This document shows positions 1,793 to 16,617 of a stretch of 18,304 nucleotides of DNA, in pieces (position 1 is the stretch's first letter; the number at the start of each line of letters is the position of its first letter). The notes beneath the pieces were generated by a model, which had not been told where the DNA came from, ran no database searches, and saw only the letters and a list, made by a program, of their open reading frames with translations. The position numbers and the translations under genes are program-made. Source of the DNA: Candidatus Methylomirabilales bacterium (GTDB lineage: Bacteria; Methylomirabilota; Methylomirabilia; Methylomirabilales; CSP1-5); assembly GCA_046758505.1 (NCBI GenBank), contig JBHIAH010000053.1, forward strand, positions 1-18,304, read 5' to 3'.

Positions 1793-3235
1793 ATGACACG
1801 GTGGCTCCACATTACGGTATGGACGGTCCTTTTCGTCGCCGCGTTCGCCGTGCCCCGGGCCGATGCCGAGTACCGGCGGGAGAGCTGGGGGGCCAAGGAG
1901 GGGGAGGCGTGCATCGCCTGCCATAGCGACCAGACCCCCGCCCTGGCGGAGGAGTGGCGCATCGGCCGCCACGGGCAGGCGGGCGTCAACTGCTACGATT
2001 GTCATCGCGCCGACAAGAAAGATCCGGATGCCTTCACGCACTTTGACCGGACCATCGCCATCCTGGTGAGCCCGAAGGACTGCGCCCAGTGCCACCAAAA
2101 GGAAGTCGATGAGCAGAAGGGGAGCCACCATGCGAAGGCGGGGCAGATCCTGGCCTCGCTGGACAATTTTCTGGGTGCGGTCGTGGGGGGGCCGCCAGCC
2201 GTCGCCACCGGATGCATGCAGTGCCACGGGTCGACCATCCGCGTCCTGGCGGGGGGAAAGCTCGATCCCACCACCTGGCCCAACACCGGGATCGGCCGGA
2301 TCAACCCGGACGGCAGCCGGGGGAGTTGTACCGCCTGTCACACCCGCCATGCCTTTTCGGTGGCGCAGGCCCGCCGGCCCGACGCCTGCGGGAAGTGCCA
2401 CCTGGGGCCGGATCATCCCCAAATCGAGGTCTACCAGGAGTCCAAGCACGGCATCCTCTATCAGGCGTTCAAAGATCGGCTGAACATTGACCGTTCCAAC
2501 TGGATCGTGGGGGTGGACTACACGGCGGCCCCCACCTGCGCGACCTGCCACATGAGCGCCACCCCGGATCAGGGCGTAACCCATGACGTGGGGGAGCGGA
2601 TCTCGTGGACCCTGCGGCCGCCCATTTCCAAGAAGCTCAACATGGTCGTCTTTGAGGATCTGTCGAAGACCGATATCCCGGAAGGGAAGCCGCTGCCCAA
2701 AGTCGGAAAAAAGTTTCGAGGGAAGCGGGTGAAGGAGGTCTTGACCTGGAAGGACAGGCGCAACCAGATGGTGAACGTGTGCCGCAACTGTCACGCCGAG
2801 CCGTTTGTGAGCGGGTTCTACCGGCAATTCGACGACCTGGTGAACCTGTACAACGACAAGTTCGGCCGCCCGGCCACTGCCATCATGAAAGCGCTCAAGA
2901 AGGCGGGGAAGCTCACGCCTGCTCCGTTCGACGAGAATCTCGAGTGGATCTACTGGGAGCTCTGGCACCACGAGGGACGCCGGGCCCGGCACGGTGCGTC
3001 CATGTCGGGACCCGATTACGCCTGGTGGCACGGTATGTACGAGGTTGCGAAAAGCTTCTACCTCCACTTCGTCCCGGAAGTGAAGCAGGTCGCCGGTGAG
3101 CCGCTTGCCACGAAGTTGCTCGACAAGTACGTCTTCTCCCAACCGGGGCACCGGTGGGTCAAGGAGGGGATGAGCAAGGAGCAGCTCAAGAAGATCCAAC
3201 AGTTCTATCGCGAGCGCTACGGCGAAGAAAAATAA
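1793..3235 (+). CDS. hao: Octaheme c-type cytochrome of the hydroxylamine oxidoreductase (HAO) family, probably reductive (epsilon-Hao-like)
   Basis: Sec signal peptide and 8 CxxCH motifs (CIACH, CYDCH, CAQCH, CMQCH, CTACH, CGKCH, CATCH, CRNCH). HAO-family motifs GRINPDGSRGSCTACHTRH, CHLGPDHPQIEVYQESKHG, APTCATCH, WHHEGRRARHGASMSGPDYAWWHG. RBS GAGGGGG. Confidence 0.9.
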   Translation: MTRWLHITVWTVLFVAAFAVPRADAEYRRESWGAKEGEACIACHSDQTPALAEEWRIGRHGQAGVNCYDCHRADKKDPDAFTHFDRTIAILVSPKDCAQCHQKEVDEQKGSHHAKAGQILASLDNFLGAVVGGPPAVATGCMQCHGSTIRVLAGGKLDPTTWPNTGIGRINPDGSRGSCTACHTRHAFSVAQARRPDACGKCHLGPDHPQIEVYQESKHGILYQAFKDRLNIDRSNWIVGVDYTAAPTCATCHMSATPDQGVTHDVGERISWTLRPPISKKLNMVVFEDLSKTDIPEGKPLPKVGKKFRGKRVKEVLTWKDRRNQMVNVCRNCHAEPFVSGFYRQFDDLVNLYNDKFGRPATAIMKALKKAGKLTPAPFDENLEWIYWELWHHEGRRARHGASMSGPDYAWWHGMYEVAKSFYLHFVPEVKQVAGEPLATKLLDKYVFSQPGHRWVKEGMSKEQLKKIQQFYRERYGEEK

Positions 3236-3955: not shown

Positions 3956-4078
3956 CCAACACCTCGCACCCACCACCTCCCGGCCCCCGCGGACGTGCAG
4001 TCCCGGGGGTCGGTCCTCTTTACAGGGCGGTTGCGGTGTGAGAGTGACGGGTGTTAGAATCCCGGCTCGGAGGTCTTC

Positions 4079-5848
4079 GTGAGAACTCCGTTTCCACCCC
4101 GTTACTTCTTGGCCTCGATCGCGCTGCTCCTGGTGCTCGTCGCCCTCTATGCGGTGTGGGCGATTCGGCGGACGCAACACGAGCTAACGCGCCAGCTCGA
4201 GCAGAAGGGGGTGGCGTTGGCCGAGGCCTTCGAGACAAGCAGTCAGAATGCCATCCAGGGTAACGCCCTGATGGAAGAGATGATCGCCCAGCGCCTCTTC
4301 GACAACGCCCGGCTCATTGACCAGCTCCTCCTCACCCGCCCGTTTGACCCGGCCCTGCTCAAACGGATCAGCGCCATGAATCGGCTCCAGCGGGTGGACC
4401 TGCTCGACCGCGAGGGGCGTCCTTATAAACCCCCGCGGACACGCCGGGGGATGGTGGGACCCGGGATGAGGGGCATGATGAGGGGGGCGCCAGGCTCCGC
4501 GGAGATGCGCGAAGCCCACCGCCGGATGATGATGTACATGTGGGGCCGTCGATGGGGACCGCGTCACGAAGAGGCGGTCCCACCCCCACCGCCGGTGGAG
4601 GAAGAGAAATTCTGGGAAGGGAGTCTCTTCGGTGTCGCCGTCGAGGCGCGAAGCTTTCCCGGCATCATCGCGGTTCACGCGGATGCCGACTACGTCTTGA
4701 ACTTCCGAAAAGAGATCGGAGTCGAGCAACAGATCCAGGAGCTCGGGCGGCAACCCGGGGTGGAGGAGGTCGCCCTTTTGGGATCTGATCTGACAGTGCT
4801 GGCTCATTCTGATCCGGGGCGCCAGGGCGAGCGAGAGAATGATAGTGTCCTGCAGCAGGCACTGGAGGGGCGGAAGCCGCTGAGCCGGCTGGTCACGGGC
4901 ACAGGGGGCACGGAAGTCTTCGAGGTTCTCAGGCCGCTCAGTCTGGGCGGCTCGCGACTCGGCCTGCTCAGGGTCGCCCTGTCGACGGCGCCGGTGGAGC
5001 AGGAATGGAAGCGGGATGTCCGGTCCGCCGCCGTCCTCGGATTGGCTGTCCTCTTGGCGGGCGCGTTGGGGATGGCTGTCATCTTTTACATGCAACACCG
5101 GCATCTGGTTGAGGTGAAATCCCTCGCGGCCGAGGTCGAGCGGCGCGATCGCCTCGCCTCGCTGGGGAACCTGGCAGCGGCCGTGGCCCACGAGGTCCGG
5201 AATCCGCTGAACGCCATTGCGATGGGGCTGCAGCGCTTGAGAGAAGAGTTCCGGCCTGCCAACGACGAAGCGGACTACGCCAGGTTTGTGGACCTGATGC
5301 AGGGGGAGGTCCAACGGCTGAATGGCATCGTACAGGAGTTTCTCTCGCTGGCCCGGCCCCTCTCGCTCAACCCCGATGCCGTCCAGATCGGGGAGCTGCT
5401 CAGCGAAGTGGCTGCGCTCGTTGAGCCGGATGCCGAAACGCGGGGGATCACGGTGAACCTCGATCTTTTGTCCGACCTTCCCTCCGCCCAGTTGGATCGG
5501 GACCACATCAAGCAGGTGCTCTTGAACCTTGTGTTGAACGGCCTTGAAGCCATGCCGGGTGGCGGGACGTTGACCATCTCTGCTGCGGTCACCCGTCAAG
5601 CCCTTGTCCTGACCGTCTCGGATACCGGCGGGGGCGTGCCTGCCGATCTCCTCCCCAAAATCTTCGAGCCCTATGTCACCACCAAGGCCAAGGGGATGGG
5701 GCTCGGCCTCACCATCGCGCGGCGGATTATCGAGGCCCATGGGGGCACCATCGCGGTCGAGAGCCGGCCGGGCGAAGGTACCCGGTCCACCCTTACTCTT
5801 CCCCTCACGCTCTCAACCTTCACCTCAGAGCGCCCAGACGATGGCTAA
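4079..5848 (+). CDS. Membrane sensor histidine kinase (ZraS/AtoS-like)
   Basis: GTG start after GGAGG. Two TM helices flank a large periplasmic region. H-box AHEVRNPLNAI, N-box QVLLNLVLNGLEAM, G1 DTGGG, F-box IFEPYVTTK, G2 GMGLGL. Confidence 0.92.
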   Translation: MRTPFPPRYFLASIALLLVLVALYAVWAIRRTQHELTRQLEQKGVALAEAFETSSQNAIQGNALMEEMIAQRLFDNARLIDQLLLTRPFDPALLKRISAMNRLQRVDLLDREGRPYKPPRTRRGMVGPGMRGMMRGAPGSAEMREAHRRMMMYMWGRRWGPRHEEAVPPPPPVEEEKFWEGSLFGVAVEARSFPGIIAVHADADYVLNFRKEIGVEQQIQELGRQPGVEEVALLGSDLTVLAHSDPGRQGERENDSVLQQALEGRKPLSRLVTGTGGTEVFEVLRPLSLGGSRLGLLRVALSTAPVEQEWKRDVRSAAVLGLAVLLAGALGMAVIFYMQHRHLVEVKSLAAEVERRDRLASLGNLAAAVAHEVRNPLNAIAMGLQRLREEFRPANDEADYARFVDLMQGEVQRLNGIVQEFLSLARPLSLNPDAVQIGELLSEVAALVEPDAETRGITVNLDLLSDLPSAQLDRDHIKQVLLNLVLNGLEAMPGGGTLTISAAVTRQALVLTVSDTGGGVPADLLPKIFEPYVTTKAKGMGLGLTIARRIIEAHGGTIAVESRPGEGTRSTLTLPLTLSTFTSERPDDG

Positions 5849-7196
5849 GTCTTTCCGTATCCTGGTGGTGGACGACGAGCCGGCCCAGCTCGAACTGGTC
5901 AGCGGGTTCCTCGCCAAACGCGGCTACGACGTCTCGCTCGCCTCGAACGGCGAGGAGGCGCTGCAACGGTTCAAGCGGGAGCCATTCGATCTCGTGCTGA
6001 CCGACCAGAAGATGCCCGGTTTCTCGGGCCGCGAGCTGACCGAGGCGGTGCGGCGCGCACATCCCGAGGTTCCGGTCATCGTGATGACGGCGTACGGCAC
6101 GATCGAGACGGCGGTCGCCGCCATCCAGGCCGGAGCGGTGGACTACCTTACGAAGCCCCTCAATCTGGACGAGCTGCTCCACCGGGTTCAGCGAATCCAA
6201 GAGCGGCAGCGCCTTCTCACCGAAAACCGCGAGCTGCGCGAAGCCCTGCAGGAACGCCACCGCGTGGAGGGGATCATCGGTAACAGTGGCCGGATGCAAG
6301 AGGTCCTCTCGATGGTGCGGCGGGTGGCGCCGAGCGACGCCACGGTGCTGATCCGGGGCGAAAGCGGCACCGGTAAGGAGCTGATCGCCAAGGCGATCCA
6401 CTACGCGAGCCCGCGCGCACCCGGGCCCCTCGTCCGCGTCAACTGTGCGGCACTCCCCGAGAGCCTCATGGAGTCAGAACTCTTCGGCCACGAGAAGGGG
6501 GCTTTTACCGGTGCCGTGGCGGCCCGCAAGGGTCGGTTCGAACTGGCCGACGGCGGCAGTCTCTTTTTGGACGAGATCGGCGACCTCCCTCCACACCTGC
6601 AGGTCAAGCTCCTCCGCGTGCTCCAGGAGCGGGAGATCGAGCGGGTGGGGTCGAGCCGGCCGATCGCCGTCAACGTCCGGGTCCTCGCCGCGACCCATCG
6701 GGATCTGGAAGCGTTGATACACGACGGACGCTTTCGCGAGGATCTCTTCTATCGAATCAACGTGGTCACCATCAGCGTGCCGCCGCTCGAAGAGCGCCGG
6801 GAAGACCTGCCCCCCCTCATCGACCACTTCCTGCGGACCTTTGCCACGAAAAATGGCAAGACCATTCGCGGGCTGACGCGGGAGGCACGCGAGGCCCTCC
6901 TCCGGTACGATTACCCGGGGAACGTCCGGGAGCTCGAGAACATGATCGAGCGGGCCGTGGTCTTGACGCGGGACGAGGTGATCGATCTCAGCGATCTTCC
7001 TCTGAGTCTTCCGGAGCCGGGGGAGCACGGAGAGGAAGGGGGTCTCACGGCCGCGGTGGAAGGGCTTGAGCGGCGGATGATCCGAGACGCGTTGGCCAAG
7101 GCCGGGGGCACCCAGACCCGCGCCGCCGAGCTTCTCGGGATCAGCGAACGCGTGCTCCGATACAAGCTCAAGAAGTACGGCCTCTCCGCCGACTGA
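5841..7196 (+). CDS. Sigma-54-dependent response regulator (NtrC/ZraR/AtoC family)
   Basis: Receiver (VVDDE, LTDQKMP, TKP), Walker A GESGTGKE, GAFTGA, Walker B LFLDEIGD, RFREDLFYRIN, PGNVRELEN and a Fis-type HTH. ATG overlaps the kinase 3' end. Confidence 0.95.
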   Translation: MAKSFRILVVDDEPAQLELVSGFLAKRGYDVSLASNGEEALQRFKREPFDLVLTDQKMPGFSGRELTEAVRRAHPEVPVIVMTAYGTIETAVAAIQAGAVDYLTKPLNLDELLHRVQRIQERQRLLTENRELREALQERHRVEGIIGNSGRMQEVLSMVRRVAPSDATVLIRGESGTGKELIAKAIHYASPRAPGPLVRVNCAALPESLMESELFGHEKGAFTGAVAARKGRFELADGGSLFLDEIGDLPPHLQVKLLRVLQEREIERVGSSRPIAVNVRVLAATHRDLEALIHDGRFREDLFYRINVVTISVPPLEERREDLPPLIDHFLRTFATKNGKTIRGLTREAREALLRYDYPGNVRELENMIERAVVLTRDEVIDLSDLPLSLPEPGEHGEEGGLTAAVEGLERRMIRDALAKAGGTQTRAAELLGISERVLRYKLKKYGLSAD

Positions 7197-7260
7197 CGAT
7201 CTTTCTTCCATCGGGTAAAATAGTCCGCTCCGTGCACCGCGGGGGTGTGCTTTCGGTCCG

Positions 7261-7282
7261 AAATGTGAGGAGGATCATATCT
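7261..7282. promoter_or_regulatory. CRP-family-like box
   Basis: AAATGTGA-GGAGGA-TCATATCT versus AAATGTGA-N6-TCACATTT. Confidence 0.35.
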
Positions 7283-7315
7283 GTTGCTGTCCTGAGTCCT
7301 TGCAGGTGGCCTGGC

Positions 7316-7339
7316 TCGTGTCTAATTTCACAAGCGAAT
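7316..7339. promoter_or_regulatory. Rex-like operator upstream of the second octaheme gene
   Basis: TCGTGTC-TAAT-TTCACAA followed by GCGAAT; shares 14 identical nt with the site upstream of hao. Confidence 0.45.
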
Positions 7340-7467
7340 CCCTCTTACTTTTTCGGCTTGCCCCCGCTCTCAGTTTCGGTTAGAGAGGGGGAGAAGGATT
7401 CAAGTGTGAACTGCCGGTGTTCGTTGACCTGGCGCGGAGGCTGTCAATGCCTCGGAAGGAGGTGACG

Positions 7468-8589
7468 ATGCGGATGCGAATTCGCGGTTCCCGTCCCTGT
7501 TCCCTTGGGGTGTTGCCCCTGGCCCTCCTGCTCGCCGCCGGGGCAGCCTGGGCGCATGAGGCGCCCGTCCTGCCGCTTCCCTCCGAGCAGCTCTCGCCCG
7601 CGGCCAAGGCGAAGGGGTATGCGGGGCCCGAGGCCTGCGCCGAGTGCCACAGCGACCAGTACAACGACTACCGGGCCTCCGGCCATCCCAAGAAGCTGCG
7701 GCCTGCGGCTGAAGCCCGGGCCTGGGGAGTCCCGCTGCCCGAGGGCTACGACTGGAGCGACATCAGCTACGTGATCGGCGGGGCCCGGTGGAAGGCGCGG
7801 TTCGTCGGCAAAGACGGCTACATCATCACGAAGACCGGCCCGAACAAGGACACACCGGGCAAGAACCAGTACAACCTGGCGACGGGCCGCTGGGTGAACT
7901 ACCACCCCGGCGAGAAGAAGGCGTATACCTGCGGCACCTGCCATACCACCGGCTATAGCAAGCCGGGGCACCAGGACGGCTTGCCGGGCATCACGGGGAC
8001 CTGGGCCTTCCCCGGGATCACCTGCGAGGCGTGTCATGGCCCGGGGGCGGCCCACGCCGCAGCGCCGAGCAAGGAGAACATCAAGGTGGATAAGTCGCCG
8101 GCGGCCTGCGGCACGTGTCACATCCGGGGGACGAAGGAAAAGATTCCCGCCAAGAAGGGGTTCATCCGCCACCACGAGCAGTACAACGAGTACCTCGCCG
8201 GCCCCCACGCGGGGAAGCTCAGCTGCGCTACCTGTCATGACCCCCACAAGCGGGCCACGGTCTCGATCAAGAAGCGGTGCGCGGCCTGCCATCGCACGCA
8301 GGCCAAGGCGTTTACGGGGAGCACGATGCAGCGATCTGGCGTCACGTGCGTGGACTGCCACATGCCCCCGGCCGGGAAGAGCGCCGAATCCTTCGGGAAA
8401 TACATCGGCGATGTCAAGTCCCATATCGTGAAGATCTCAACCGGGCCACAGGACAAGATGTTCACCGCCGATGGGAAGTTCGCCACGGGCAAGCTGACCC
8501 TGGACTTTGCCTGCCTCCGCTGCCACGGTGCCCGGGATATCACCTGGGCGCGGGCCAACGCCAAGGGGATCCACGCCCGCGGCAAGTAG
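7468..8589 (+). CDS. Periplasmic octaheme c-type cytochrome (non-HAO; probable electron-transfer protein)
   Basis: ATG 7468 after AAGGAGGTG, signal peptide ending AWA|HE, and 8 CxxCH motifs (CAECH, CGTCH, CEACH, CGTCH, CATCH, CAACH, CVDCH, CLRCH). Confidence 0.9.
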   Translation: MRMRIRGSRPCSLGVLPLALLLAAGAAWAHEAPVLPLPSEQLSPAAKAKGYAGPEACAECHSDQYNDYRASGHPKKLRPAAEARAWGVPLPEGYDWSDISYVIGGARWKARFVGKDGYIITKTGPNKDTPGKNQYNLATGRWVNYHPGEKKAYTCGTCHTTGYSKPGHQDGLPGITGTWAFPGITCEACHGPGAAHAAAPSKENIKVDKSPAACGTCHIRGTKEKIPAKKGFIRHHEQYNEYLAGPHAGKLSCATCHDPHKRATVSIKKRCAACHRTQAKAFTGSTMQRSGVTCVDCHMPPAGKSAESFGKYIGDVKSHIVKISTGPQDKMFTADGKFATGKLTLDFACLRCHGARDITWARANAKGIHARGK

Positions 8590-8618
8590 CCCGGGTATTC
8601 CGATAGCGATTACGGGGT

Positions 8619-8660
8619 GAGGGGCTCCGTCCGGAGGGACGGAGCCCCTCCTTATTTTAT
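8619..8660 (+). terminator. Intrinsic terminator after the octaheme gene
   Basis: Perfect 14-bp stem GAGGGGCTCCGTCC-ggag-GGACGGAGCCCCTC followed by CTTATTTTAT. Confidence 0.8.
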
Positions 8661-8721
8661 GTCGGCAAGTCCAGGGATGATGGTGCAGACCGTGGGACAG
8701 ACGGGGCACAATCCGACGTGG

Positions 8722-8822
8722 TGAGACAATGGTGTCCCACCCGGCTAAGCTAGTCCCATTGGGCCATGGGGAGTGGTTCTCCGTGCCTAATCCCTCATTC
8801 GGTCTGGGGCAGCCGTGCCTCA
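8722..8822. promoter_or_regulatory. Paired UAS dyads TGRGRCA-N4-TGYCYCA (copy 1)
   Basis: TGAGACA-ATGG-TGTCCCA (8722-8739) and TGGGGCA-GCCG-TGCCTCA (8805-8822), 83 bp apart. Confidence 0.7.
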
Positions 8823-8919
8823 ATGGCCTGGACCCTCTCCGTTCCGCCTTACGTGTCATTTCATGAAAAATTCATGAAAAATTAACAGGTTGGAGCATGA
8901 GGGGGATCTGTTCTGCATT

Positions 8920-8935
8920 TGGCATCCGCATTGCT
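8920..8935 (+). promoter_or_regulatory. Sigma-54 promoter of the Fe-S/molybdoenzyme operon
   Basis: TGGCAT-CCGCA-TTGCT, preceded by an AT-rich tract (TTCATGAAAAA x2 at 8860-8881). Confidence 0.85.
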
Positions 8936-9088
8936 CTCCGTGCGGGAAGCTGCGCACCATGTGAAGAAGTGCACAAGTCAAGTTTCTTCCTGATCTTGGT
9001 CATGGAGAGTGAATCAGCGGGGTCCGAGCTTTCCATACGGTGCGTGGAGGGAGGCGGCAACCCGAACATCTAACGCAAGTTCAAATCA

Positions 9089-9214
9089 GATCTCCGAGCC
9101 ATCCCGATCCCCCCGGGGCGGGATGGACCCGACGGCCGGAGGAGCGATCCCCCGGCCAGCCCGATGGTCCGGAGGCGATGCGAGGGTTCCGGGCCTGAAT
9201 TGGCAAAGGAGATC
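9089..9214 (+). ncRNA. Structured leader RNA resembling a Moco/Wco riboswitch
   Basis: P1 GATCTCC (9089-9095) / GGAGATC (9208-9214) encloses stems CCATCCCG/CGGGATGG, GGCCGGAGGA-GCGA(GNRA)-TCCCCCGGCC and GGTCCGGA/TCCGGGCC. The boundaries CTCCGAGC... and ...TGGCAAAGGAG resemble the Moco RNA motif, and it sits in the 5' UTR of a molybdoenzyme operon. Confidence 0.55.
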
Positions 9215-9245
9215 GTTCCGACGGGAACGATCTCCTTTGTGTTTC
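9204..9245 (+). terminator. Leader terminator/attenuator overlapping riboswitch P1
   Basis: Perfect 16-bp stem CAAAGGAGATCGTTCC-gacg-GGAACGATCTCCTTTG followed by TGTTT. Confidence 0.7.
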
Positions 9246-9355
9246 GAGGGGCACAATGGGTTTCACGTGAGCCGCTCGAGGTTGCGACAGGGTAGCGACA
9301 GTCGGGCTCAGAGGGTCGGTGGGGGGTTGGAGCCGACATCACAAAGGAGGGGACG

Positions 9356-10138
9356 ATGGCTTTGAATGAGCTGCAGCGGATGCATGAAGACCTGGAAAGA
9401 GCCCTGAGGAAGCCGGCATCGAAGCGCTCCTGGGCGATGGTGATCGATCTGAGAAAATGCGTCGGGTGTCACGCCTGTACGGTGTCCTGTGCCGCTGAGA
9501 ACGTGTGCCCGCCAGGAACTTCGTACCGAAAGGTCTTTGAAGTCGAGTATCAGTCCTTTCCGGAGTTGGATCGGTTTTTCATGCCGGCAAACTGCCAGCA
9601 GTGCGATAACCCGCCGTGCATGAAGGCCGCCAACAAAGTCGCCCCCGGTGCCATCGAAAAGCGGAAAGACGGGATCGTGGAGTTCAGGTACGACAGACTC
9701 AGGAAGAACGCACGGGCGGGTGAGGCGGCGCAAAAGGCGTGTCCGTACTACGCCATCGTCGAGGATAGGGGGGGGTTTTACACCGAGGGTACCCCGGTGC
9801 TTGAAGCCTACGAGACGAGGAATTTCTATGAATATGACGAGACGCTAAACCGCAAAAAGGGAGATACAAGGGGCGCGATCAGGAAATGCACCTTCTGCCC
9901 CCACCGTCTCGACAGCGGGATGCTGCCGGCATGTGTTTCGACCTGCATCGGCAGGGCGATGTACTTTGGTGACAAGAACGATCCCAAGAGCCTCGTGTCG
10001 GAGTTGATTCGGAATGAGAAGGTCTGGAATCTGAAGGCCGGTCTCGGCACCGGACCGAGAATCTACTATATCGGGTACGAGCACAGGACGACGATTGCGG
10101 TTGGCACGCCCGCAACCTGCACGGTTTGCCACGAATAG
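9356..10138 (+). CDS. Fe-S electron-transfer subunit (TtrB/SrdB/PsrB/DmsB family), three-cluster variant with C-terminal CxxCH
   Basis: RBS AAAGGAGGGG. WAMVIDLRKCVGCHACTVSC, CQQCDNPPC, ACPY, KCTFCPHRL...PACVSTCIGRAMYFGD, GTGPRIYY, ending CTVCHE. Confidence 0.9.
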   Translation: MALNELQRMHEDLERALRKPASKRSWAMVIDLRKCVGCHACTVSCAAENVCPPGTSYRKVFEVEYQSFPELDRFFMPANCQQCDNPPCMKAANKVAPGAIEKRKDGIVEFRYDRLRKNARAGEAAQKACPYYAIVEDRGGFYTEGTPVLEAYETRNFYEYDETLNRKKGDTRGAIRKCTFCPHRLDSGMLPACVSTCIGRAMYFGDKNDPKSLVSELIRNEKVWNLKAGLGTGPRIYYIGYEHRTTIAVGTPATCTVCHE

Positions 10139-10150
10139 GGAGGCGCGATC

Positions 10151-13100
10151 ATGGCGGAGAAGACGAACGGATCCTGTAGATTAGCCGAATACCTCGAGAA
10201 GCTCCCGGAAAGGGAGATCTCCAGAAGATCCCTTTTGAAGTCGGGTGCACTCCTTGGCGGCTCGGCGGTGCTCATGAGTCAGCTCGAGGCGACCTCGATG
10301 CTGGCGAGAAGCGCAGAGGCGGCGGGCCGGGTTGCGGGGGGGTATCCCCTATCCAAGGCCGAGAACACCATCTATTCCGTCTGCCTGCAGTGCCACACGG
10401 CCTGTCCCATCAAGGTCAAGGTGCTGAACGGGATCGCGGTCAAGGTCGACGGCAACCCGTACAGTGAAAATATGATCCCCAACCTCGACTACTCTGCCCC
10501 GTTATCAAAGGGGGCGAAGATCGATGCAAAGGTCTGCCCGAAGGGCCAGTCCGGCATTCAGAGTCTCTACGACCCCTATCGGATCGTGAAAGTGCTCAAG
10601 AGAAACGGCCCGCGGGGTTCGAACAAGTGGACCGTGATTCCGTTCGATCAGGCCGTTGACGAGATTGTCAATGGCGGCAAGCTCTTTGCCTCGATCGGGG
10701 AGCAGAGGCACGTCCCCGGACTGAAAGAGATCTACGGATTGCGGGATGCCAAGCTTTCCGCCCGGATGGCGAAGGATGCCACGGCTGTTGCCAAAGGGAA
10801 AATGCAGGTGGCTGATTTCAAATCGAAATACCGGGCCCACCTGGATGTCTTGATTGACCCGGATCACCCGGATCTCGGCCCAAAGAACAATCAGCTCCTG
10901 ACGATGTGGGGGCGGATCGAGCACGGCCGAATCGAGCTCGGCAAGCGATTCATGTACGGCTCGTTTGGCTCGCACAACCTGATCGAACACACGTGCATCT
11001 GCGAACAGTCCCACCACATCGCCTATAAGGAGAGTACGAAGCAGTATAAGGGCGGGAAATGGAAAAAGGGAAAAACCCATATGAAACCCGATGCGTTCAA
11101 TGCGGAGTTCATCGTTTACTTCGGCACGGGTTTCGTGGAGGCCAACTTTGGACCGCCAGCGATGTGCGAAAAGGTCACCGAGGGGTTGGCCTCTGGACGG
11201 CTCAAGGTGGCCGTGGTGGACCCGAGGATGAGCAAGTCGGCGGCCAAGGCGTGGAAGTGGCTGCCCATCCAGCCGTCGACGGATGCGGCACTGGCGCTGG
11301 CCATGATTCGCTGGATGATCGAGCACAAGAGATACGATGCGCGGTATCTGGCGAACGCCAACAAGGCCGCGGCGAAGGCCTCCGGGGAGACCACGTGGTC
11401 CAACGCCGCGCATCTCGTCAAGATCGAGAAAGATGGTCCCGGGGCGCTGTTGCGGGCATCGGACGTTGGGGTGGGCGGCAAGGATGCCTTTGTGGTTGTC
11501 CGAGAGGGGAATGCCGTGTCTGTGAAGGTCGGTGACGGCAAGAACGCCGTCACCGGGGATCTCGATTTCAGCGGCGAGATCAATGGCGTGAAGGTCAAGA
11601 CGGCGTTTCGGCTCTTGAAGGAGGAGGCGTTCTCTCGCGGCCTGGCGGAGTGGTCCGCCATCTGCGGGATTCCGGTGAAAGACATCGAGGAGGTTGCGAG
11701 GGAGCTCACCTCGCACGGCAAGAAGGCCGCGGTCGAGTTTTACCGGGGGCCTGTCCAGCACACCAACGGGTTTTACAACGCGCGGGCGCTCATCGCGCTC
11801 AATATCCTCCTGGGGAATGCGGATCACAAGGGGGGCATGTCGGTCGGCGGCAGCCACTGGCACGAGTTTGGAGGGAAGTCGAAGGAACAATTCAGTGTCA
11901 AGAAGAAGAAGATGCATCCCAACATGCTCACGGCCTTCGGCCACAAGATCACGAGGGAGGGGTCGCATTACGAGCAGTCGACGCTCTTCCGTGGCTATCC
12001 CGCCAAGAGGCCGTGGCTGCCGTTTACCAGCAATGTGTACCAGGAGGCGCTGCCGTCAGCAGCGGACGGCTATCCGTATCCGATCAAGGCGCTCTGGCTG
12101 CACATGGGATCGCCCGGATACGCCTCCCCCGCAGCCCATACGGCGCTCAAGATCCTCGCGGACGTGGAGAAAATCCCCCTGTTCTTCTCGACCGACATCG
12201 TGCTCGGCGAAAGCACGATGTACGCGGATTACGTCTTCCCCGACACCGCGATCTGGGAGCGGTTTGGAAACCCCCATGCGTCGCCGGATGTGCCGTTGCG
12301 GGCGTCGAAGTTCCGGCAGCCCACGGTCACTCCGCTCACCGAGGTGGTGACGGTGTTCGGAGAAAAGATGCACTGCTCCTACGAGGCGGTCCTCCTGGCC
12401 ATTGCCGAACGGCTCAAACTGTCGGGCTTTGGCACCGACGGGTTCGGCCGCGGATGGGGCTTGACCCGACCGGAGGATTGGTTCCTCAAACTTGCGGCCA
12501 ACATGGCGGTGGGCGACAAGAAAGGCGATTCGGTGCCGGCTGCCTCCTTCGACGAGATGAAGCTGTTTGTGAAGGCACGGAGGCATCTCAAACCGACCGT
12601 CTTTTCCGCCCGCAGGTGGGAAAAGGCAGTCGGCTCCGACAAATGGAAGAGGACGGTGACCGTCCTCAACAGAGGGGGCCGTTGGGAAAAGTGGGCCGAT
12701 GAGGTTACCAACGGCAAGGGGATGCTGGTGCACAAGTTCAAAAAACAGCTCAACCTCTACGTCGAGCGGGTGGCCGTGGCGAAACAGTCCCTCACGGGCA
12801 AGAGGTTCTCCGGCGTCCCGATCTATGAACCTCCCAAGGACGCTGCCGGGAATCTGGCTGTCGACAGGAATATGCCGCTCCAGCTCATCACCTACAAGGA
12901 TATCCTCGGCGGCCAGTCGAGAACGCTGCCCGGGAACTACTGGCTGAGCTCGATCCTGCCGGAGAATTACCTGCTGATCAATGTCGGGACGGCCAAGAAG
13001 CTGGGCTTTGAGGACGGCGACAAGGCCAGGCTGATCTCTGCCACGAACCATGACGGCAAGTGGCACCTGCCCAACCGGGGGGCGGTCGATATGGTCGGCA

Positions 13101-13351
13101 AGATTAAGGCCGTGGAAGGCATGGCCCCTGGGGTCGTGGCGGTGTCATGGCACTTCGGACACTGGGGGTACGGTGCAGCGGACAGCGTCATTGATGGCAG
13201 GACGATCAAGGGGGACAAGCGGCGCACGACGGGTCTGTGCCCCAATGCCGCCATGAAGGTCGATCCCGTGCTCAAGAATGCGTGCATGACGGATCCGATC
13301 GGGGGAAGCTCGTCGTATTATGACACCAGGGTCACGCTTATGAAGGCATGA
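10151..13351 (+). CDS. Tat-exported molybdopterin oxidoreductase catalytic subunit, TtrA/SrdA-like clade
   Basis: 1066 aa. Tat motif SRRSLLK, FS0 motif CLQCHTAC...CPKG. TtrA-like stretches KVDGNPYS, YDPYRIVKVLKRNGPRG, DEIVNGGKLF, LGPKNNQL, AVVDPR, GESTMYADYVFPD and C-terminal PGVVAVSWHFGHW. Substrate cannot be assigned from sequence alone. Confidence 0.88.
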   Translation: MAEKTNGSCRLAEYLEKLPEREISRRSLLKSGALLGGSAVLMSQLEATSMLARSAEAAGRVAGGYPLSKAENTIYSVCLQCHTACPIKVKVLNGIAVKVDGNPYSENMIPNLDYSAPLSKGAKIDAKVCPKGQSGIQSLYDPYRIVKVLKRNGPRGSNKWTVIPFDQAVDEIVNGGKLFASIGEQRHVPGLKEIYGLRDAKLSARMAKDATAVAKGKMQVADFKSKYRAHLDVLIDPDHPDLGPKNNQLLTMWGRIEHGRIELGKRFMYGSFGSHNLIEHTCICEQSHHIAYKESTKQYKGGKWKKGKTHMKPDAFNAEFIVYFGTGFVEANFGPPAMCEKVTEGLASGRLKVAVVDPRMSKSAAKAWKWLPIQPSTDAALALAMIRWMIEHKRYDARYLANANKAAAKASGETTWSNAAHLVKIEKDGPGALLRASDVGVGGKDAFVVVREGNAVSVKVGDGKNAVTGDLDFSGEINGVKVKTAFRLLKEEAFSRGLAEWSAICGIPVKDIEEVARELTSHGKKAAVEFYRGPVQHTNGFYNARALIALNILLGNADHKGGMSVGGSHWHEFGGKSKEQFSVKKKKMHPNMLTAFGHKITREGSHYEQSTLFRGYPAKRPWLPFTSNVYQEALPSAADGYPYPIKALWLHMGSPGYASPAAHTALKILADVEKIPLFFSTDIVLGESTMYADYVFPDTAIWERFGNPHASPDVPLRASKFRQPTVTPLTEVVTVFGEKMHCSYEAVLLAIAERLKLSGFGTDGFGRGWGLTRPEDWFLKLAANMAVGDKKGDSVPAASFDEMKLFVKARRHLKPTVFSARRWEKAVGSDKWKRTVTVLNRGGRWEKWADEVTNGKGMLVHKFKKQLNLYVERVAVAKQSLTGKRFSGVPIYEPPKDAAGNLAVDRNMPLQLITYKDILGGQSRTLPGNYWLSSILPENYLLINVGTAKKLGFEDGDKARLISATNHDGKWHLPNRGAVDMVGKIKAVEGMAPGVVAVSWHFGHWGYGAADSVIDGRTIKGDKRRTTGLCPNAAMKVDPVLKNACMTDPIGGSSSYYDTRVTLMKA

Positions 13352-13469
13352 CGTCCCTTCCCCCTCACGCAATATCGGCACGAAGTCGCCCAATGGTGGT
13401 AGAATACGCCTGCCGGGGAGCCGTGGTGGCGGTCCTGAGGCGCCGGCCTTGAGGCACCGCGTCACGTCA

Positions 13470-13570
13470 TGGGACAGGGCTGCCCCAGACGGCTAAGTCA
13501 CTATCCTCCGGTATGTTTGTCGTGCTTGGTCCACATTCTTCCCCTGTTGTTCTGGGGCAGCTCTGTCTCA
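13470..13570. promoter_or_regulatory. Paired UAS dyads TGRGRCA-N4-TGYCYCA (copy 2)
   Basis: TGGGACA-GGGC-TGCCCCA (13470-13487) and TGGGGCA-GCTC-TGTCTCA (13553-13570), 83 bp apart, the same spacing as copy 1. Confidence 0.7.
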
Positions 13571-13669
13571 CTGGCAGCGCGAGAGGATGGGTATTTCGAT
13601 TGCCTTTGAAAGGTATTTGTGATTTAAAATTAGGGGGTTAGCCATTGGTCTGCAGTCATCTTCACCCGA

Positions 13670-13685
13670 TGGCACCCCCCTTGCT
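13670..13685 (+). promoter_or_regulatory. Sigma-54 promoter
   Basis: TGGCAC-CCCCC-TTGCT, a perfect consensus match. Confidence 0.85.
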
Positions 13686-13750
13686 CATAATCACCGGGAC
13701 CCAATCTCCGTTCGGCGGAAGGCTCGAACCGGGAACAGGGGGTGTCGGCG

Positions 13751-14230
13751 ATGCGATGCTCGATCATGGCGGCGCTCATAGCTTCGCTGGTCCTCGTCCC
13801 CCGGGTTGGATGGGGGCACGGGGCGGGGGCGCGGGTCGGGGCGAGGACGATCGGCAACCTCGAGGTCACTCTGTACGTGTGGGGGCCTCAGGAGGTCCTT
13901 CGCCCCAAAGGGGACGGCCACCATACGCCGCGGGCGGCGGCCACCCATCACCTGGATGTGCGGGTCTACGACCTGAAGCGAGGGATCTACATTCCGTACC
14001 TCACCGTCAAGGCGACCATCACTGACCGCACCAAGCAGCGGGAGTTTACTGTGGAGTTGGATCCCATGATCGGGGAGTGGCTGCACTACGGGGCCAACAT
14101 CACCCTGCCGCACCCGGGGATCTATTCGATCCTACTCGACGTCCAACCGCCGGATATCGCCCGGTACAAACACCTGGCGGATGTGTGGAATACCCCGGCT
14201 CAGGCACTCTTCACCTATGAGTATCGTTAA
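13751..14230 (+). CDS. Periplasmic P19/Tp34/FetP-type (Fe2+ transport family) metal-binding protein
   Basis: RBS AGGGGGTG, signal peptide, and family pattern HHLDV...YIPYLTVKATI...LDPM...HYGANI.L...G.Y...QPP, which includes the His/Met/His Cu-site residues. Confidence 0.8.
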   Translation: MRCSIMAALIASLVLVPRVGWGHGAGARVGARTIGNLEVTLYVWGPQEVLRPKGDGHHTPRAAATHHLDVRVYDLKRGIYIPYLTVKATITDRTKQREFTVELDPMIGEWLHYGANITLPHPGIYSILLDVQPPDIARYKHLADVWNTPAQALFTYEYR

Positions 14231-14270
14231 TAATAACAAGAAGAAGAAGAAGGGGACGGGCCTGAACTTT

Positions 14271-14771
14271 TTGATCGATACGATTTGTCATTGGTTCTTC
14301 CCCGAGCGGGTCCGAGTGCTTCCGGGGGCACGGGCCTGGTCTATTACCTTCCGGACACTGCACCTGGCAGCCTTTGGCGTGCTGCTCGGTGGTCATGCGT
14401 TTTCCGTCGACGCGGAAAAGCTCCTGTCGTATCTCTGGCTCACCATTCTGAGCGGCCTCGGCCTGATCGCCCTCGAGGTGTATGCCGAGGGTCTGTACTG
14501 GCTCTTTCTGGGAAAGGGGATCACGGTCCTGGCGAAGCTCGGGATCCTGCTCGCCGTCCCCCTCTTCTGGGAACAGCGCGTAGCCCTCCTGGTGACTGTG
14601 GTGGTGATCGCTTCCGTTGGATCCCATATGCCCGCACGGTTTCGCCACTACTCGTTTCTCCACGGACGGGTCATCGGGGTGGGAGAACCCCTTCGGCCTC
14701 CCGCCCGCGTTCTCCAGCCGGAGGTGAGGGGCGTAACGACGCTTGAGGGAGCAGATTCGCGACAGCGGTGA
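14271..14771 (+). CDS. Small multi-pass (~4 TM) membrane protein of unknown function
   Basis: Hydrophobic helices with RTLH...GGH and SHMP.RFRHYS motifs. Start uncertain (CTG 14262 or TTG 14271 after AAGGGG). Confidence 0.7.
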   Translation: MIDTICHWFFPERVRVLPGARAWSITFRTLHLAAFGVLLGGHAFSVDAEKLLSYLWLTILSGLGLIALEVYAEGLYWLFLGKGITVLAKLGILLAVPLFWEQRVALLVTVVVIASVGSHMPARFRHYSFLHGRVIGVGEPLRPPARVLQPEVRGVTTLEGADSRQR

Positions 14772-14815
14772 GGAATGTGCGGCAGCGGGCGACAGGCGCA
14801 CAACAAGGAGGGAGG

Positions 14816-15151
14816 ATGGCAAAACCCCCAAAGGCTTATACACAGTTTCAACGGGACTTCCGGCGGGTCTGGCAGGCGTACGACCGCTTAGGGGCAGCGG
14901 TCCACCGGGAGGGGCCGATAAAGGCAAAGGCTCGGGAGCTGGTCAAGCTGGGAATGGCCATCGGCGGGCGGCTCGAGGGGGCGGTGAAGGCCCACACCCG
15001 CCTGGCCCTCGAGCAGGGCGCGACGCGTGAGGAAATCCGCCAGGTGGCGCTCATGGCCATCACGACGGTCGGCTTCCCAACGGCGATGGCGGCTCTCACC
15101 TGGATCGAGGACGTGATCTCGAAAAGACGCGGCCCCCGCACACGGCGGTGA
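14816..15151 (+). CDS. Carboxymuconolactone decarboxylase (CMD/AhpD-like) family protein
   Basis: RBS AGGAGGGAGG. GPIKAKARELVKLGMAI...AVKAHTRLALEQGATREEI...TTVGFP; no CxxC. Confidence 0.85.
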   Translation: MAKPPKAYTQFQRDFRRVWQAYDRLGAAVHREGPIKAKARELVKLGMAIGGRLEGAVKAHTRLALEQGATREEIRQVALMAITTVGFPTAMAALTWIEDVISKRRGPRTRR

Positions 15152-15243
15152 GGGAGATACCGATCTCGGGTCGCGGGCGGACCGAGAGAGAGTAACCGGT
15201 GGGAGGCGGACGTTACGGCGGGGAGGAGACAGGTTTGGGAAGC

Positions 15244-16617
15244 ATGAACGGGTATAAGGGACATCTCGTCATCATGGTCGGTGCGGGGCCTGCCGCCCTG
15301 TATGCCACTGGCAAGCTCACCGAGAAGGGGCATACCGTTCTGATGCTGAACCGGGATGTCAAGCCGGGGGGCCTGGCGGAGTACGGCATTTACCTGTCCA
15401 AACACAAGATGAAAGAGGGCCTGCGGAAGCAGTTTCGGCAGATTCTCGCCAATCCCCGGGTGATTTACTTCGGCAACGTCAAAGTAGGCGAGGGGGCGGC
15501 CGTGTGCTTCAGCGAGCTGCAGGATCTCAAGCCGAGTGCGATTGTCGTTGGGGCGGGGGCGCAGGGGACGAAGTCGTTGGGGGTCCCCGGGGATGATGGG
15601 CCAAATGTCTATCACGCCAAGGACCTGGTCTACCACTACAATCTCCTTCCGCCCTTCAGTGAGAAAGACTTTCCCATGGGGCAGCGCGTGGCCATCATCG
15701 GCATCGGCAACGTCATGGCGGACATCGCGAACTATCTGGTCACGATCCGCAAAGTTCCCGAGGTCATCGCCGTGGCGCGGCGAGGGCCCGTCGAGCGAAA
15801 ATACGATGACCGCGAGATGCGACCCATCGCCTGGCATATCGACAAAGAAGCGGTAAAGGCGGAGCTCGAGCGGATTCGGCCCCGGCTCGAGCCGCTCGGC
15901 CAGGATATGGACGTTCAGTATAAGGAGTTGACGAAGGACTGTCATGTCGAACCGAAGGCGGGCAGGGGTCCCACGCGTCTCTCTTTTCGCTTCCTGGCCT
16001 CACCGAAACGGATCGTCCGGGATGAGACCGGGCGCATGGTCGGCATGGAGGTCGAGGAAAACACGTTGGTCGAACGCAAGGGTTCGCTCGCCGCCAAAGG
16101 CCTGGGTGAGACCACCGTGCTTCCCGTGGACACGGTAGTTTTTGCCATCGGGGATGTGGTGGACCTCGACCTTGGTCTTTCCGCCATAAAGGGAGGCTGG
16201 GGCTACGCGACGAATCCAAACCCGGATCCTCACGATCCGGAAGCGGCCAGATATCAGGTCTTCGATCCCCAGGCCGAGCAGCTCATGGATGGTGTCTTTG
16301 TCGTCGGCTGGTCGCGGAGCGCCAGCGAGGGGGTCGTGGGCAAGGCGCGGCTCGATGGCGAGAAGGGGGCGGCTGTGGTGAACCGGTACTTGTCCCAGCG
16401 CCCCGGGCTCTCCCGCCGGGAGATCTACCAGCGGATCGGGACCGTCTATCACCGTGTGCGTGAAAAGTCGTTCCCGGTGGTCCACAAGGGACTCTGGCGG
16501 ATCCTGGAGCAGGTTGAGCGGGAAGAGGCGCACAGGCGGGGTCTCGAGGAATTTAAGTTCGGCACCAACGAGGAAATGCTGCGGGTCGTCCAGGAGAGAG
16601 TGAAGAAGCGATCGTGA
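15244..16617 (+). CDS. FAD-dependent ferredoxin-NADP+ reductase (FprA / adrenodoxin-reductase-like)
   Basis: GAGPAA FAD-binding motif, PGGLAEYGI, YFGNVKVG, IIGIGNVMADIA, ARRGP, FRFLASP, FAIG and FVVGWSRSASEGVVG. Confidence 0.85.
   Translation: MNGYKGHLVIMVGAGPAALYATGKLTEKGHTVLMLNRDVKPGGLAEYGIYLSKHKMKEGLRKQFRQILANPRVIYFGNVKVGEGAAVCFSELQDLKPSAIVVGAGAQGTKSLGVPGDDGPNVYHAKDLVYHYNLLPPFSEKDFPMGQRVAIIGIGNVMADIANYLVTIRKVPEVIAVARRGPVERKYDDREMRPIAWHIDKEAVKAELERIRPRLEPLGQDMDVQYKELTKDCHVEPKAGRGPTRLSFRFLASPKRIVRDETGRMVGMEVEENTLVERKGSLAAKGLGETTVLPVDTVVFAIGDVVDLDLGLSAIKGGWGYATNPNPDPHDPEAARYQVFDPQAEQLMDGVFVVGWSRSASEGVVGKARLDGEKGAAVVNRYLSQRPGLSRREIYQRIGTVYHRVREKSFPVVHKGLWRILEQVEREEAHRRGLEEFKFGTNEEMLRVVQERVKKRS

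Follow-up and report, generated by a model that had tools for sequence, protein, structure and literature searches.

Among molybdoenzymes related to TtrA and SrdA, TtrBCA of Salmonella and Shewanella ANA-3 and SrdBCA consist of a Mo enzyme (A) exported by twin-arginine translocation (Tat) and an iron-sulfur subunit (B) encoded before it, together with a membrane anchor (C). The Ttr-like arsenate reductases of Anaeromyxobacter sp. PSR-1, Pyrobaculum aerophilum and the Ttr-type locus of Melioribacter roseus are treated as B-C-A enzymes in the accessible parts of PMC12949373 and PMC5492636. Soluble AB enzymes are represented by ArrAB of Shewanella ANA-3 (PDB 6cz7) and by the periplasmic FdhAB of Desulfovibrio/Nitratidesulfovibrio (PDB 1h0h, 6sdr, 30gj), in which FdhB carries three clusters and has cytochrome c3 partners, according to the available text of PMC13397495. 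Here we analyzed a window of 18,304 nucleotides, the whole stretch under study, from a Candidatus Methylomirabilales bacterium (CSP1-5; contig JBHIAH010000053.1, assembly GCA_046758505.1; genome 96.8% complete). It encodes a B subunit of 260 residues and, 12 bases after the B stop codon, an A subunit of 1066 residues (Table 1). We regard the pair, at somewhat better than even odds, as a two-gene operon of the TtrA/SrdA lineage whose product would be a soluble periplasmic enzyme, most likely an arsenate reductase, in which a haem held by His259 and Met76 of B would replace the membrane anchor as the electron port.

Iron-sulfur ligands of B and absence of an anchor

B has cysteines at positions 35, 38, 41, 45, 51, 80, 83, 88, 129, 178, 181, 193, 197, 255 and 258. 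Twelve of them are cluster cysteines, and the ligands of clusters FS1-FS3 are all present, as stated in the original prediction, which had been made from the sequence alone. The same prediction held that exactly the four FS4 cysteines are missing, and this was confirmed: at the positions that we take to be the FS4 ligands, following the established NarH/FdnH/PsrB ligand-to-cluster map, B has A92, L115, G122 and A125, where 70/70 four-cluster relatives have Cys. A structure model of B built on a 96-sequence alignment reached a predicted local distance difference test score (pLDDT) of 92.1, and its best fold match was ArrB (6cz7_B; Z 24.2, root-mean-square deviation 2.5, 214 aligned residues). 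Against family models, B scored 133 for TtrB (cut-off 416) and 124 for ArrB (cut-off 450).

All 117 classifiable proteins among the best 120 homologues of B had at most one FS4 cysteine. We also pooled the listed matches of two homologue searches into 213 distinct proteins, of which two were unclassifiable fragments; the other 211 were scored, and every one (211/211) had at most one FS4 cysteine. The queries were themselves FS4-less proteins, so this biased sample informs on the traits that accompany FS4 loss, not on its frequency. Strain-specific decay of FS4 was rejected on these counts, and by these alignments FS4 loss is a family trait, neither chance nor decay. The second cysteine of group I is Cys in 160 of the 211 proteins, Asp in 49 and Glu in 2, and the window's B has Cys; most of the closest relatives (P0004-P0065, L013-L036) have Asp, for which an Asp-ligated FS1 is predicted.

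Gene context was compared at loci drawn from a genome scan, a metagenome scan, genome searches and regions, and four plasmid controls. From 137 B loci, 11 duplicates and 3 cut genes were dropped, leaving 123. In 48 of these, B has 0/4 FS4 cysteines, a C-terminal CxxCH tail and no C gene after it (A lies directly next in 46, and 2 are at a contig edge). Another 56 have four FS4 cysteines, no tail and C next to B. The remaining 19 have four FS4 cysteines and no tail, with no C directly after B; A is adjacent in 14 of them, and in several of these a small gene for a trihaem cytochrome immediately precedes the pair. C thus follows B in 0/48 FS4-less tailed loci versus 56/75 four-cluster loci, in line with the proposed co-occurrence of FS4 loss and an absent C subunit. 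A further 30 loci, collected later from a different phylum sample (one duplicate), comprised 23 four-Cys loci without a tail and 7 tail-bearing loci without C after B. FS4 loss was never seen together with an anchor, and anchor loss is possible without FS4 loss.

A family scan of the 14 window proteins gave no NrfD- or TorD-family match, as expected from the earlier claim that the window has no TtrC/SrdC/NrfD subunit and no TorD/DmsD chaperone. The genome has five NrfD genes, all on other contigs and each beside its own Fe-S subunit, and three TorD-family genes, also on other contigs; an orphan NrfD as partner was rejected (0/5). We consider it very improbable that the enzyme is linked to quinone by an unrecognised membrane partner, whether NrfD from elsewhere or the small membrane protein encoded at 14262-14771 (+). 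This protein belongs to no known family, has four invariant His in 7/7 aligned copies, is possibly haem- or metal-binding, and has homologues near molybdoenzyme A genes in eight other loci. However, those loci include both architectures and a more distant family, so that it also flanks B-C-A enzymes; it has no match in L013-L036, the closest relatives; its gene has its own sigma-54-type site at 13670; and all five NrfD genes are paired with other B subunits. That the enzyme is anchorless and linked to a cytochrome is, by comparison, quite probable.

A predicted haem at the C terminus of B

B ends in CxxCH (C255, C258, H259) plus one residue, a feature that the original prediction had overlooked. 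The CxxCH tail is present in 199/211 FS4-less proteins and the terminal His in 211/211, including all 12 proteins without CxxC. In the B tree these His-only tails form at least two branches nested among CxxCH forms. The motif lies no more than 2 residues from the C terminus in 111/122 proteins, and the tail is absent from 75/75 four-cluster relatives and from all 23 of the later set. As a background, the genome has 7351 stop-to-stop frames that span 150 codons or more, and only 4 of them end in CxxCH. In another homologue set, where 59 of 150 proteins were unclassifiable by the Cys pattern used, two long proteins with four or three FS4 cysteines carry an internal CxxCH, not a terminal tail.

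A second position is associated with FS4 loss. At position 76, which precedes the first FS3 cysteine by four residues, the 211 FS4-less proteins have Met (194), Lys (16) or Ile (1), whereas Met76 occurs in 3/75 four-cluster relatives and in 1/23 of the later set. Two columns change together with it: P79 becomes Asn, and an invariant R134 becomes a hydrophobic residue. Met and Lys are known axial haem ligands, and by ferredoxin topology the strand bearing Met76 presumably runs beside FS3. Conservation of this position suggests that Met76 (Met or Lys) is likely the second haem ligand. As for the first, an axial haem ligand fits the His that is invariant even without CxxC better than a Cys-based metal site does. 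B also shows the features expected of a c-type cytochrome, namely a conserved CxxCH, predicted export, and a host with maturation genes; we found CcmE, three haem-lyase-family genes and TatC.

Several points weigh against a haem. CxxC is missing from 12/211 relatives; the tail is the least certain region of the model (pLDDT 67-73); cytochrome c maturation normally works on unfolded Sec substrates; and no paper describing an Fe-S subunit that is exported by Tat and then receives haem came up in our literature searches. A tail without haem would instead be a non-haem metal site, a disulfide or a docking helix, with B acting as a three-cluster wire like Desulfovibrio FdhB. The His-only relatives and the poor fit between Tat export of a folded protein and normal haem attachment favor this alternative, and FdhB does function with three clusters and a separate cytochrome c3 (PMC13397495, in the part available). 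We nevertheless judge it unlikely: the His is invariant even where the cysteines are gone, and Met/Lys76 appears together with the tail, also in forms that retain FS4 cysteines. A haem on the B tail is probable.

In the mechanism that we propose, A and B would fold in the cytoplasm and B would be exported on the Tat signal of A. A has a twin-arginine motif and B no signal peptide, which suggests that B travels with A; a twin-arginine motif is absent from the window's B and present in 104/211 relatives. After export, the periplasmic cytochrome c machinery would attach haem to the free terminal tail, and the haem would dock near FS3 with Met76 as its sixth ligand. Electrons would then pass from the cytochrome c pool through the haem, FS3, FS2, FS1 and FS0 to Mo. 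Since a haem on His259 and Met76 would draw on the chain of clusters ahead of FS4, that cluster would become redundant and decay; the CxxCH tail and Met76 are the likely reason that its loss was tolerated.

The donor would be a general periplasmic cytochrome. Of the original proposal, a soluble AB enzyme coupled to a cytochrome, possibly the adjacent octahaem, the coupling is still the likeliest reading, but the octahaem as dedicated partner was not borne out and is now highly unlikely. Its gene (7417-8589) lies on the same strand 767 bases upstream of B, and other multihaem genes occur near three relatives (L047, L067 and L203). On the other side, no octahaem homologue stands beside any of the other 47 tailed loci, although the upstream sequence reaches 4 kb or more in only 29 of them; no match was found at any other locus among L001-L168, and one later locus matched weakly (27% over 126 residues). 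A terminator-like hairpin (8619-8650, before the T-rich run) and a separate promoter-like site also stand between the octahaem gene and B (Table 1). As conserved partners, both this octahaem and an HAO-like octahaem (1793-3235) were rejected, with no matches in other loci up to L168.

If a haem is present, the superfamily would have a third respiratory link besides an anchor or a separate cytochrome subunit, namely a haem within the Fe-S wire. It would also be a natural haem c on a protein exported folded, and thus a test of whether cytochrome c maturation needs an unfolded substrate.

Origin of the tailed B subunit and candidate substrates

Trees of B were computed from an alignment that excluded the FS4 stretch (89-128) and the tail. 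The FS4-less proteins formed one clade (48/48, FastTree 0.996); in a 40-row tree, the 16 FS4-less rows again formed one clade at 100/99, with a bootstrap not fully settled. By contrast, the A partners of FS4-less B fall in both main A subclades, interleaved with B-C-A enzymes: the tailed-type partners need 7 changes on a 40-row A tree, and a single clade was rejected (p-AU, approximately unbiased test, 3.9e-126). One clade of B with A partners that are not one clade suggests that the module was swapped between enzymes. The B module likely arose once, as the trees have it, and was then exchanged between catalytic lineages. A single origin also means that the co-occurrence counts given above are not independent, which tells against our interpretation.

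Intermediate forms were found at four loci. L172-L174 keep three FS4 cysteines and L176 keeps one, all with Met76, a CxxCH tail and no C. Their B proteins were placed as sister to the FS4-less clade at 91/94, and their A subunits as sister to the window's A clade (Shimodaira-Hasegawa-like approximate likelihood ratio test, 95). The placement of B is a weak point, as 91/94 is below the tool's support bar and adding the intermediates lowers the FS4-less clade to 93/92. In the sister branch, A of L199 is 100% identical to P0199 (NCBI name Deferrisoma camini) and A of L201 is 97.7% identical to P0409 (NCBI name D. palaeochoriense). With tail, Met76 and no anchor in a sister branch that still has FS4 cysteines, the tail would precede FS4 decay; the likely order is gain of tail and Met76 with loss of the anchor first, and decay of FS4 second.

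A separate clade (L094, L112, L131, L149, L150, L154, L156 and L197) consists of anchorless four-cluster B-A loci with one or two small trihaem cytochrome genes just upstream of B, another way for this lineage to couple to a cytochrome. As candidate ancestor of the tailed module, this clade was recovered with FastTree support of 0.83 and 0.995 and IQ-TREE support of 76, and was unrecovered in two other trees.

Taken together, these comparisons give good support to a real and widespread variant, in its predicted architecture as in its history. A fuller account, to which we give slightly less than an even chance, is a plug-in module of single origin: a terminal c-type haem (His259/Met76 beside FS3), added after export, would have made anchor and FS4 dispensable, and the module, swapped into several catalytic lineages, would have turned quinol-linked oxyanion reductases into cytochrome-linked ones, with a halfway stage (tail and decaying FS4) in cultured Deferrisoma. 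The graded series of 3, 1 and 0 FS4 cysteines in the presence of the tail makes cluster loss in an electron chain testable in a cultured genus.

A is closest to TtrA (score 470, cut-off 1750), followed by PhsA (187) and ArrA (124, cut-off 1600). With its Tat motif, FS0 motif and Cys Mo ligand, it belongs to the lineage of TtrA, SrdA and alternative arsenate reductases within the DMSO reductase superfamily. In an alignment with ArrA, the Gly-Arg pair (G254-R255), the His (H280) and the Mo ligand (C284) all match, and each is present in 39/39 same-architecture A subunits. The original prediction had pointed to two Cys in the candidate Mo-ligand loop EHTCICEQSHH; the extra cysteine, C282, proved to be private to the window's copy (1/39 same-architecture A subunits and none of 117 homologues with a readable motif, of 119). 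The window's A is 67-82% identical to Nitrospirota/Desulfobacterota-type copies versus 51% to the copy in G005, a genome of the same genus, which suggests lateral acquisition.

An arsenic oxyanion is, on these sequence features, the moderately favored substrate. In the accessible part of PMC12949373, Gly-Arg is found in all arsenic-metabolising relatives and is absent from true Ttr, and its authors note that mutagenesis is still needed; in our set neither of the two Ttr-type controls (L165 and L167) has it. Of 30 tailed-type loci with at least 4 kb upstream, 22 adjoin ars genes or a gene for a phosphonate-type binding protein, and comparable neighbors surround the arsenate-induced Ttr-type locus of Melioribacter (PMC5492636, as far as its text is available). 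At three intermediate loci, ars genes and a binding-protein gene stand immediately upstream; the fourth carries arsA and a binding-protein gene. D. palaeochoriense, for its part, presumably uses arsenate as well. In 5/5 genomes searched, the source genome and those of the four intermediate loci, no ArrA scored over the cut-off. The Cys motif of the neighboring binding proteins was non-discriminating (13/20 tailed-type versus 23/28 B-C-A-type).

Other observations count against arsenic. The markers are lineage-wide, with Gly-Arg in 35/36 B-C-A enzymes and ars or binding-protein neighbors in 26/30; no ars gene or binding protein lies near B-A in the window; the residue after Gly-Arg is Tyr in ArrA and Ile in the window's A; SrdA belongs to the lineage; and PMC12724226 cites D. 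palaeochoriense as a selenate reducer. The last two points and the lack of arsenic neighbors favor the same architecture acting on selenate or a sulfur oxyanion (tetrathionate, thiosulfate or sulfite), as does the presence of TtrA in the lineage. In the available part of PMC13490349, moreover, a TtrC-less Ttr homologue, possibly a member of the tailed family, is up under sulfite in Dissulfuribacter. We hold this substrate class to be unlikely, as true Ttr has no Gly-Arg and ars clusters flank many relatives.

Within arsenic chemistry, we regard arsenate reduction as possible, at a good deal less than even odds, and arsenite oxidation as rather doubtful. An alternative arsenite oxidase with the same haem port, whose electrons would leave by the His/Met haem for cytochrome c and then reach a nitrate or oxygen reductase, is an improbable reading as a whole. 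Haems with His/Met ligation often have a high potential, and independence from the quinone pool would suit a donor near +100 mV. Moreover, the closest relatives stand behind a binding protein, a kinase and a response regulator, an arrangement that we take to be that of aioXSR/arxXSR. However, many hosts are Thermodesulfovibrionia and Desulfobacterota, presumably anaerobic respirers. Gly-Arg is common to ArxA too (PMC12949373), yet the characterised arsenic enzymes of the TtrA-like lineage are reductases in the accessible portions of PMC12949373, PMC5492636 and PMC10100899. If arsenic is indeed the substrate, these proteins would be widespread candidate arsenic-cycling enzymes of uncultured anaerobes that either bear the label tetrathionate reductase or have no annotation, and that arrA surveys would miss. 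One soil study, in its available text, found that ttrA-like transcripts exceeded those of arrA (PMC11462812).

The locus and its relation to known systems

Table 1. Coordinates of B-A features in the window and the basis of each assignment
Feature	Position	Strand	Basis
B subunit, Fe-S protein of TtrB/ArrB fold with three predicted clusters and C-terminal CxxCH, without signal peptide	9356..10138	+	family scores, structure model, fold match
B Cys group I (C35, C38, C41, C45), intact	9458..9490	+	sequence
B Met76, candidate distal haem ligand (putative role)	9581..9583	+	conservation among FS4-less proteins
B Cys group II (C80, C83, C88), A92 in place of fourth Cys	9593..9631	+	sequence, alignment
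B group III stretch, first three Cys gone, C129 retained	9698..9742	+	sequence; helical in model (112-117, 119-128)
B Cys group IV (C178, C181, C193, C197), intact	9887..9946	+	sequence
B C-terminal CxxCH (C255, C258, H259), predicted c-type haem attachment site	10118..10132	+	conservation; helix 252-258, pLDDT about 70
A subunit, TtrA-like Mo/W-bisPGD catalytic subunit	10151..13351	+	family scores, motifs
A twin-arginine motif	10217..10246	+	sequence; TatC gene in genome
A FS0 motif CxxCxxxC, fourth ligand C129 of A at 10535	10382..10405	+	sequence
A Gly254-Arg255, aligned with ArrA arsenate-binding Gly-Arg	10910..10915	+	alignment to 6cz7_A; marker from PMC12949373 (accessible part)
A Mo-ligand loop H280-T281-C282-I283-C284; C284 likely Mo ligand	10988..11002	+	alignment to ArrA loop
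Terminator-like hairpin closing octahaem gene, upstream boundary of B-A unit	8619..8660	+	14-nt perfect inverted repeat, then T-rich run
Predicted sigma-54-type promoter site (-24/-12) upstream of B-A	8920..8935	+	match to consensus

The sigma-54-type site upstream of B-A has a genome-wide rate of about 0.01 per 770 bases of one strand, and such a site occurs upstream in 7/41 same-architecture loci versus 1/47 B-C-A loci. A perfect 11-nucleotide tandem repeat (8860-8881), about 40 bases upstream of it, is a possible regulator site. The leader (8936-9355) contains a perfect 16-nucleotide inverted repeat at 9204-9239, whose right arm could pair alternatively with 9340-9349, beside the B ribosome-binding site; translational control of B is possible. 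An Rfam scan of the window gave two weak matches far under gathering scores, and none for this repeat.

Further upstream, genes for a ZraS/ZraR-like two-component pair and for a small periplasmic protein rich in Gly and Met lie between the two octahaem genes. Downstream, the sigma-54-type site at 13670 precedes genes for a Tpd/P19-like protein, the His-rich membrane protein and a CMD/AhpD protein (13670-15151, +). This set is also found near the B-C-A genes of G008, a genome of the same genus (L008, L058), and in G005 (L047) two of its genes come after a tailed B-A pair; judging by these neighbors, the window's B-A may have taken over the site of a resident enzyme. Elsewhere in the source genome, contig C12 (about 4000-15700, -) has a binding protein, kinase and response regulator before a different molybdoenzyme operon.

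Other arrangements were seen among the relatives. In L104 and L125, a four-cluster B-A pair that lacks NrfD precedes small genes for four-helix membrane proteins, which may be an anchor of another type. In L102:8709-13118, L183 and L184, a single reading frame apparently encodes a fusion of C and A. On enterobacterial plasmids, L166 (NZ_CP037863.1) and its plasmid relatives carry a Gly-Arg-bearing B-C-A operon within an ars cluster; A, a candidate plasmid-borne arsenic enzyme, matched 72 plasmid records.

Our literature searches, whose coverage was without most subscription papers, gave no paper on a CxxCH-tailed, FS4-less B subunit. The nearest match was a ttrAB at a contig end, with no tail described in the accessible text; the available part of PMC13490349 describes a TtrC-less Ttr homologue with two membrane genes.

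The Ttr-like arsenate reductases share the catalytic lineage, the Cys Mo ligand and Gly-Arg with the window's enzyme, and have a binding protein, a two-component system and ars neighbors, as do the window's relatives (PMC12949373, PMC5492636, accessible parts). They were compared by description and differ in that the window's enzyme has no C, three predicted clusters and a CxxCH tail. TtrBCA and SrdBCA resemble it in having B before A and a Mo enzyme with a Tat signal, and TtrA and TtrB are its best family matches. However, it scores far under both cut-offs, has no nine-helix TtrC between B and A, three predicted clusters in place of four and no Tat leader on B, and with G254-R255 it lacks a hallmark of bona fide TtrBCA, the absence of Gly-Arg. 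ArrAB, a soluble AB enzyme as is proposed for the window's pair, provides the best fold match for B and aligns at the active-site Arg, His and Cys. By contrast, ArrB keeps all four Cys groups, the window's gene order is B-A, and its subunits fall below the ArrA and ArrB cut-offs.

FdhAB matches the soluble periplasmic AB enzyme proposed for the window's pair, and its B subunit is without the same ligand positions, as seen in the alignment to 30gj_B. With this precedent, FS4 loss without an anchor is not new in itself, and the original prediction overstated it. FdhAB belongs to another catalytic family with another substrate, its partner haems are on a separate protein, and the tail region of the window's B model is unaligned with FdhB (the aligned model range ends at 242-243). 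With a predicted three-cluster B in what would be a soluble, cytochrome-linked AB enzyme, the window's pair is in that part a parallel of the known FdhAB design.

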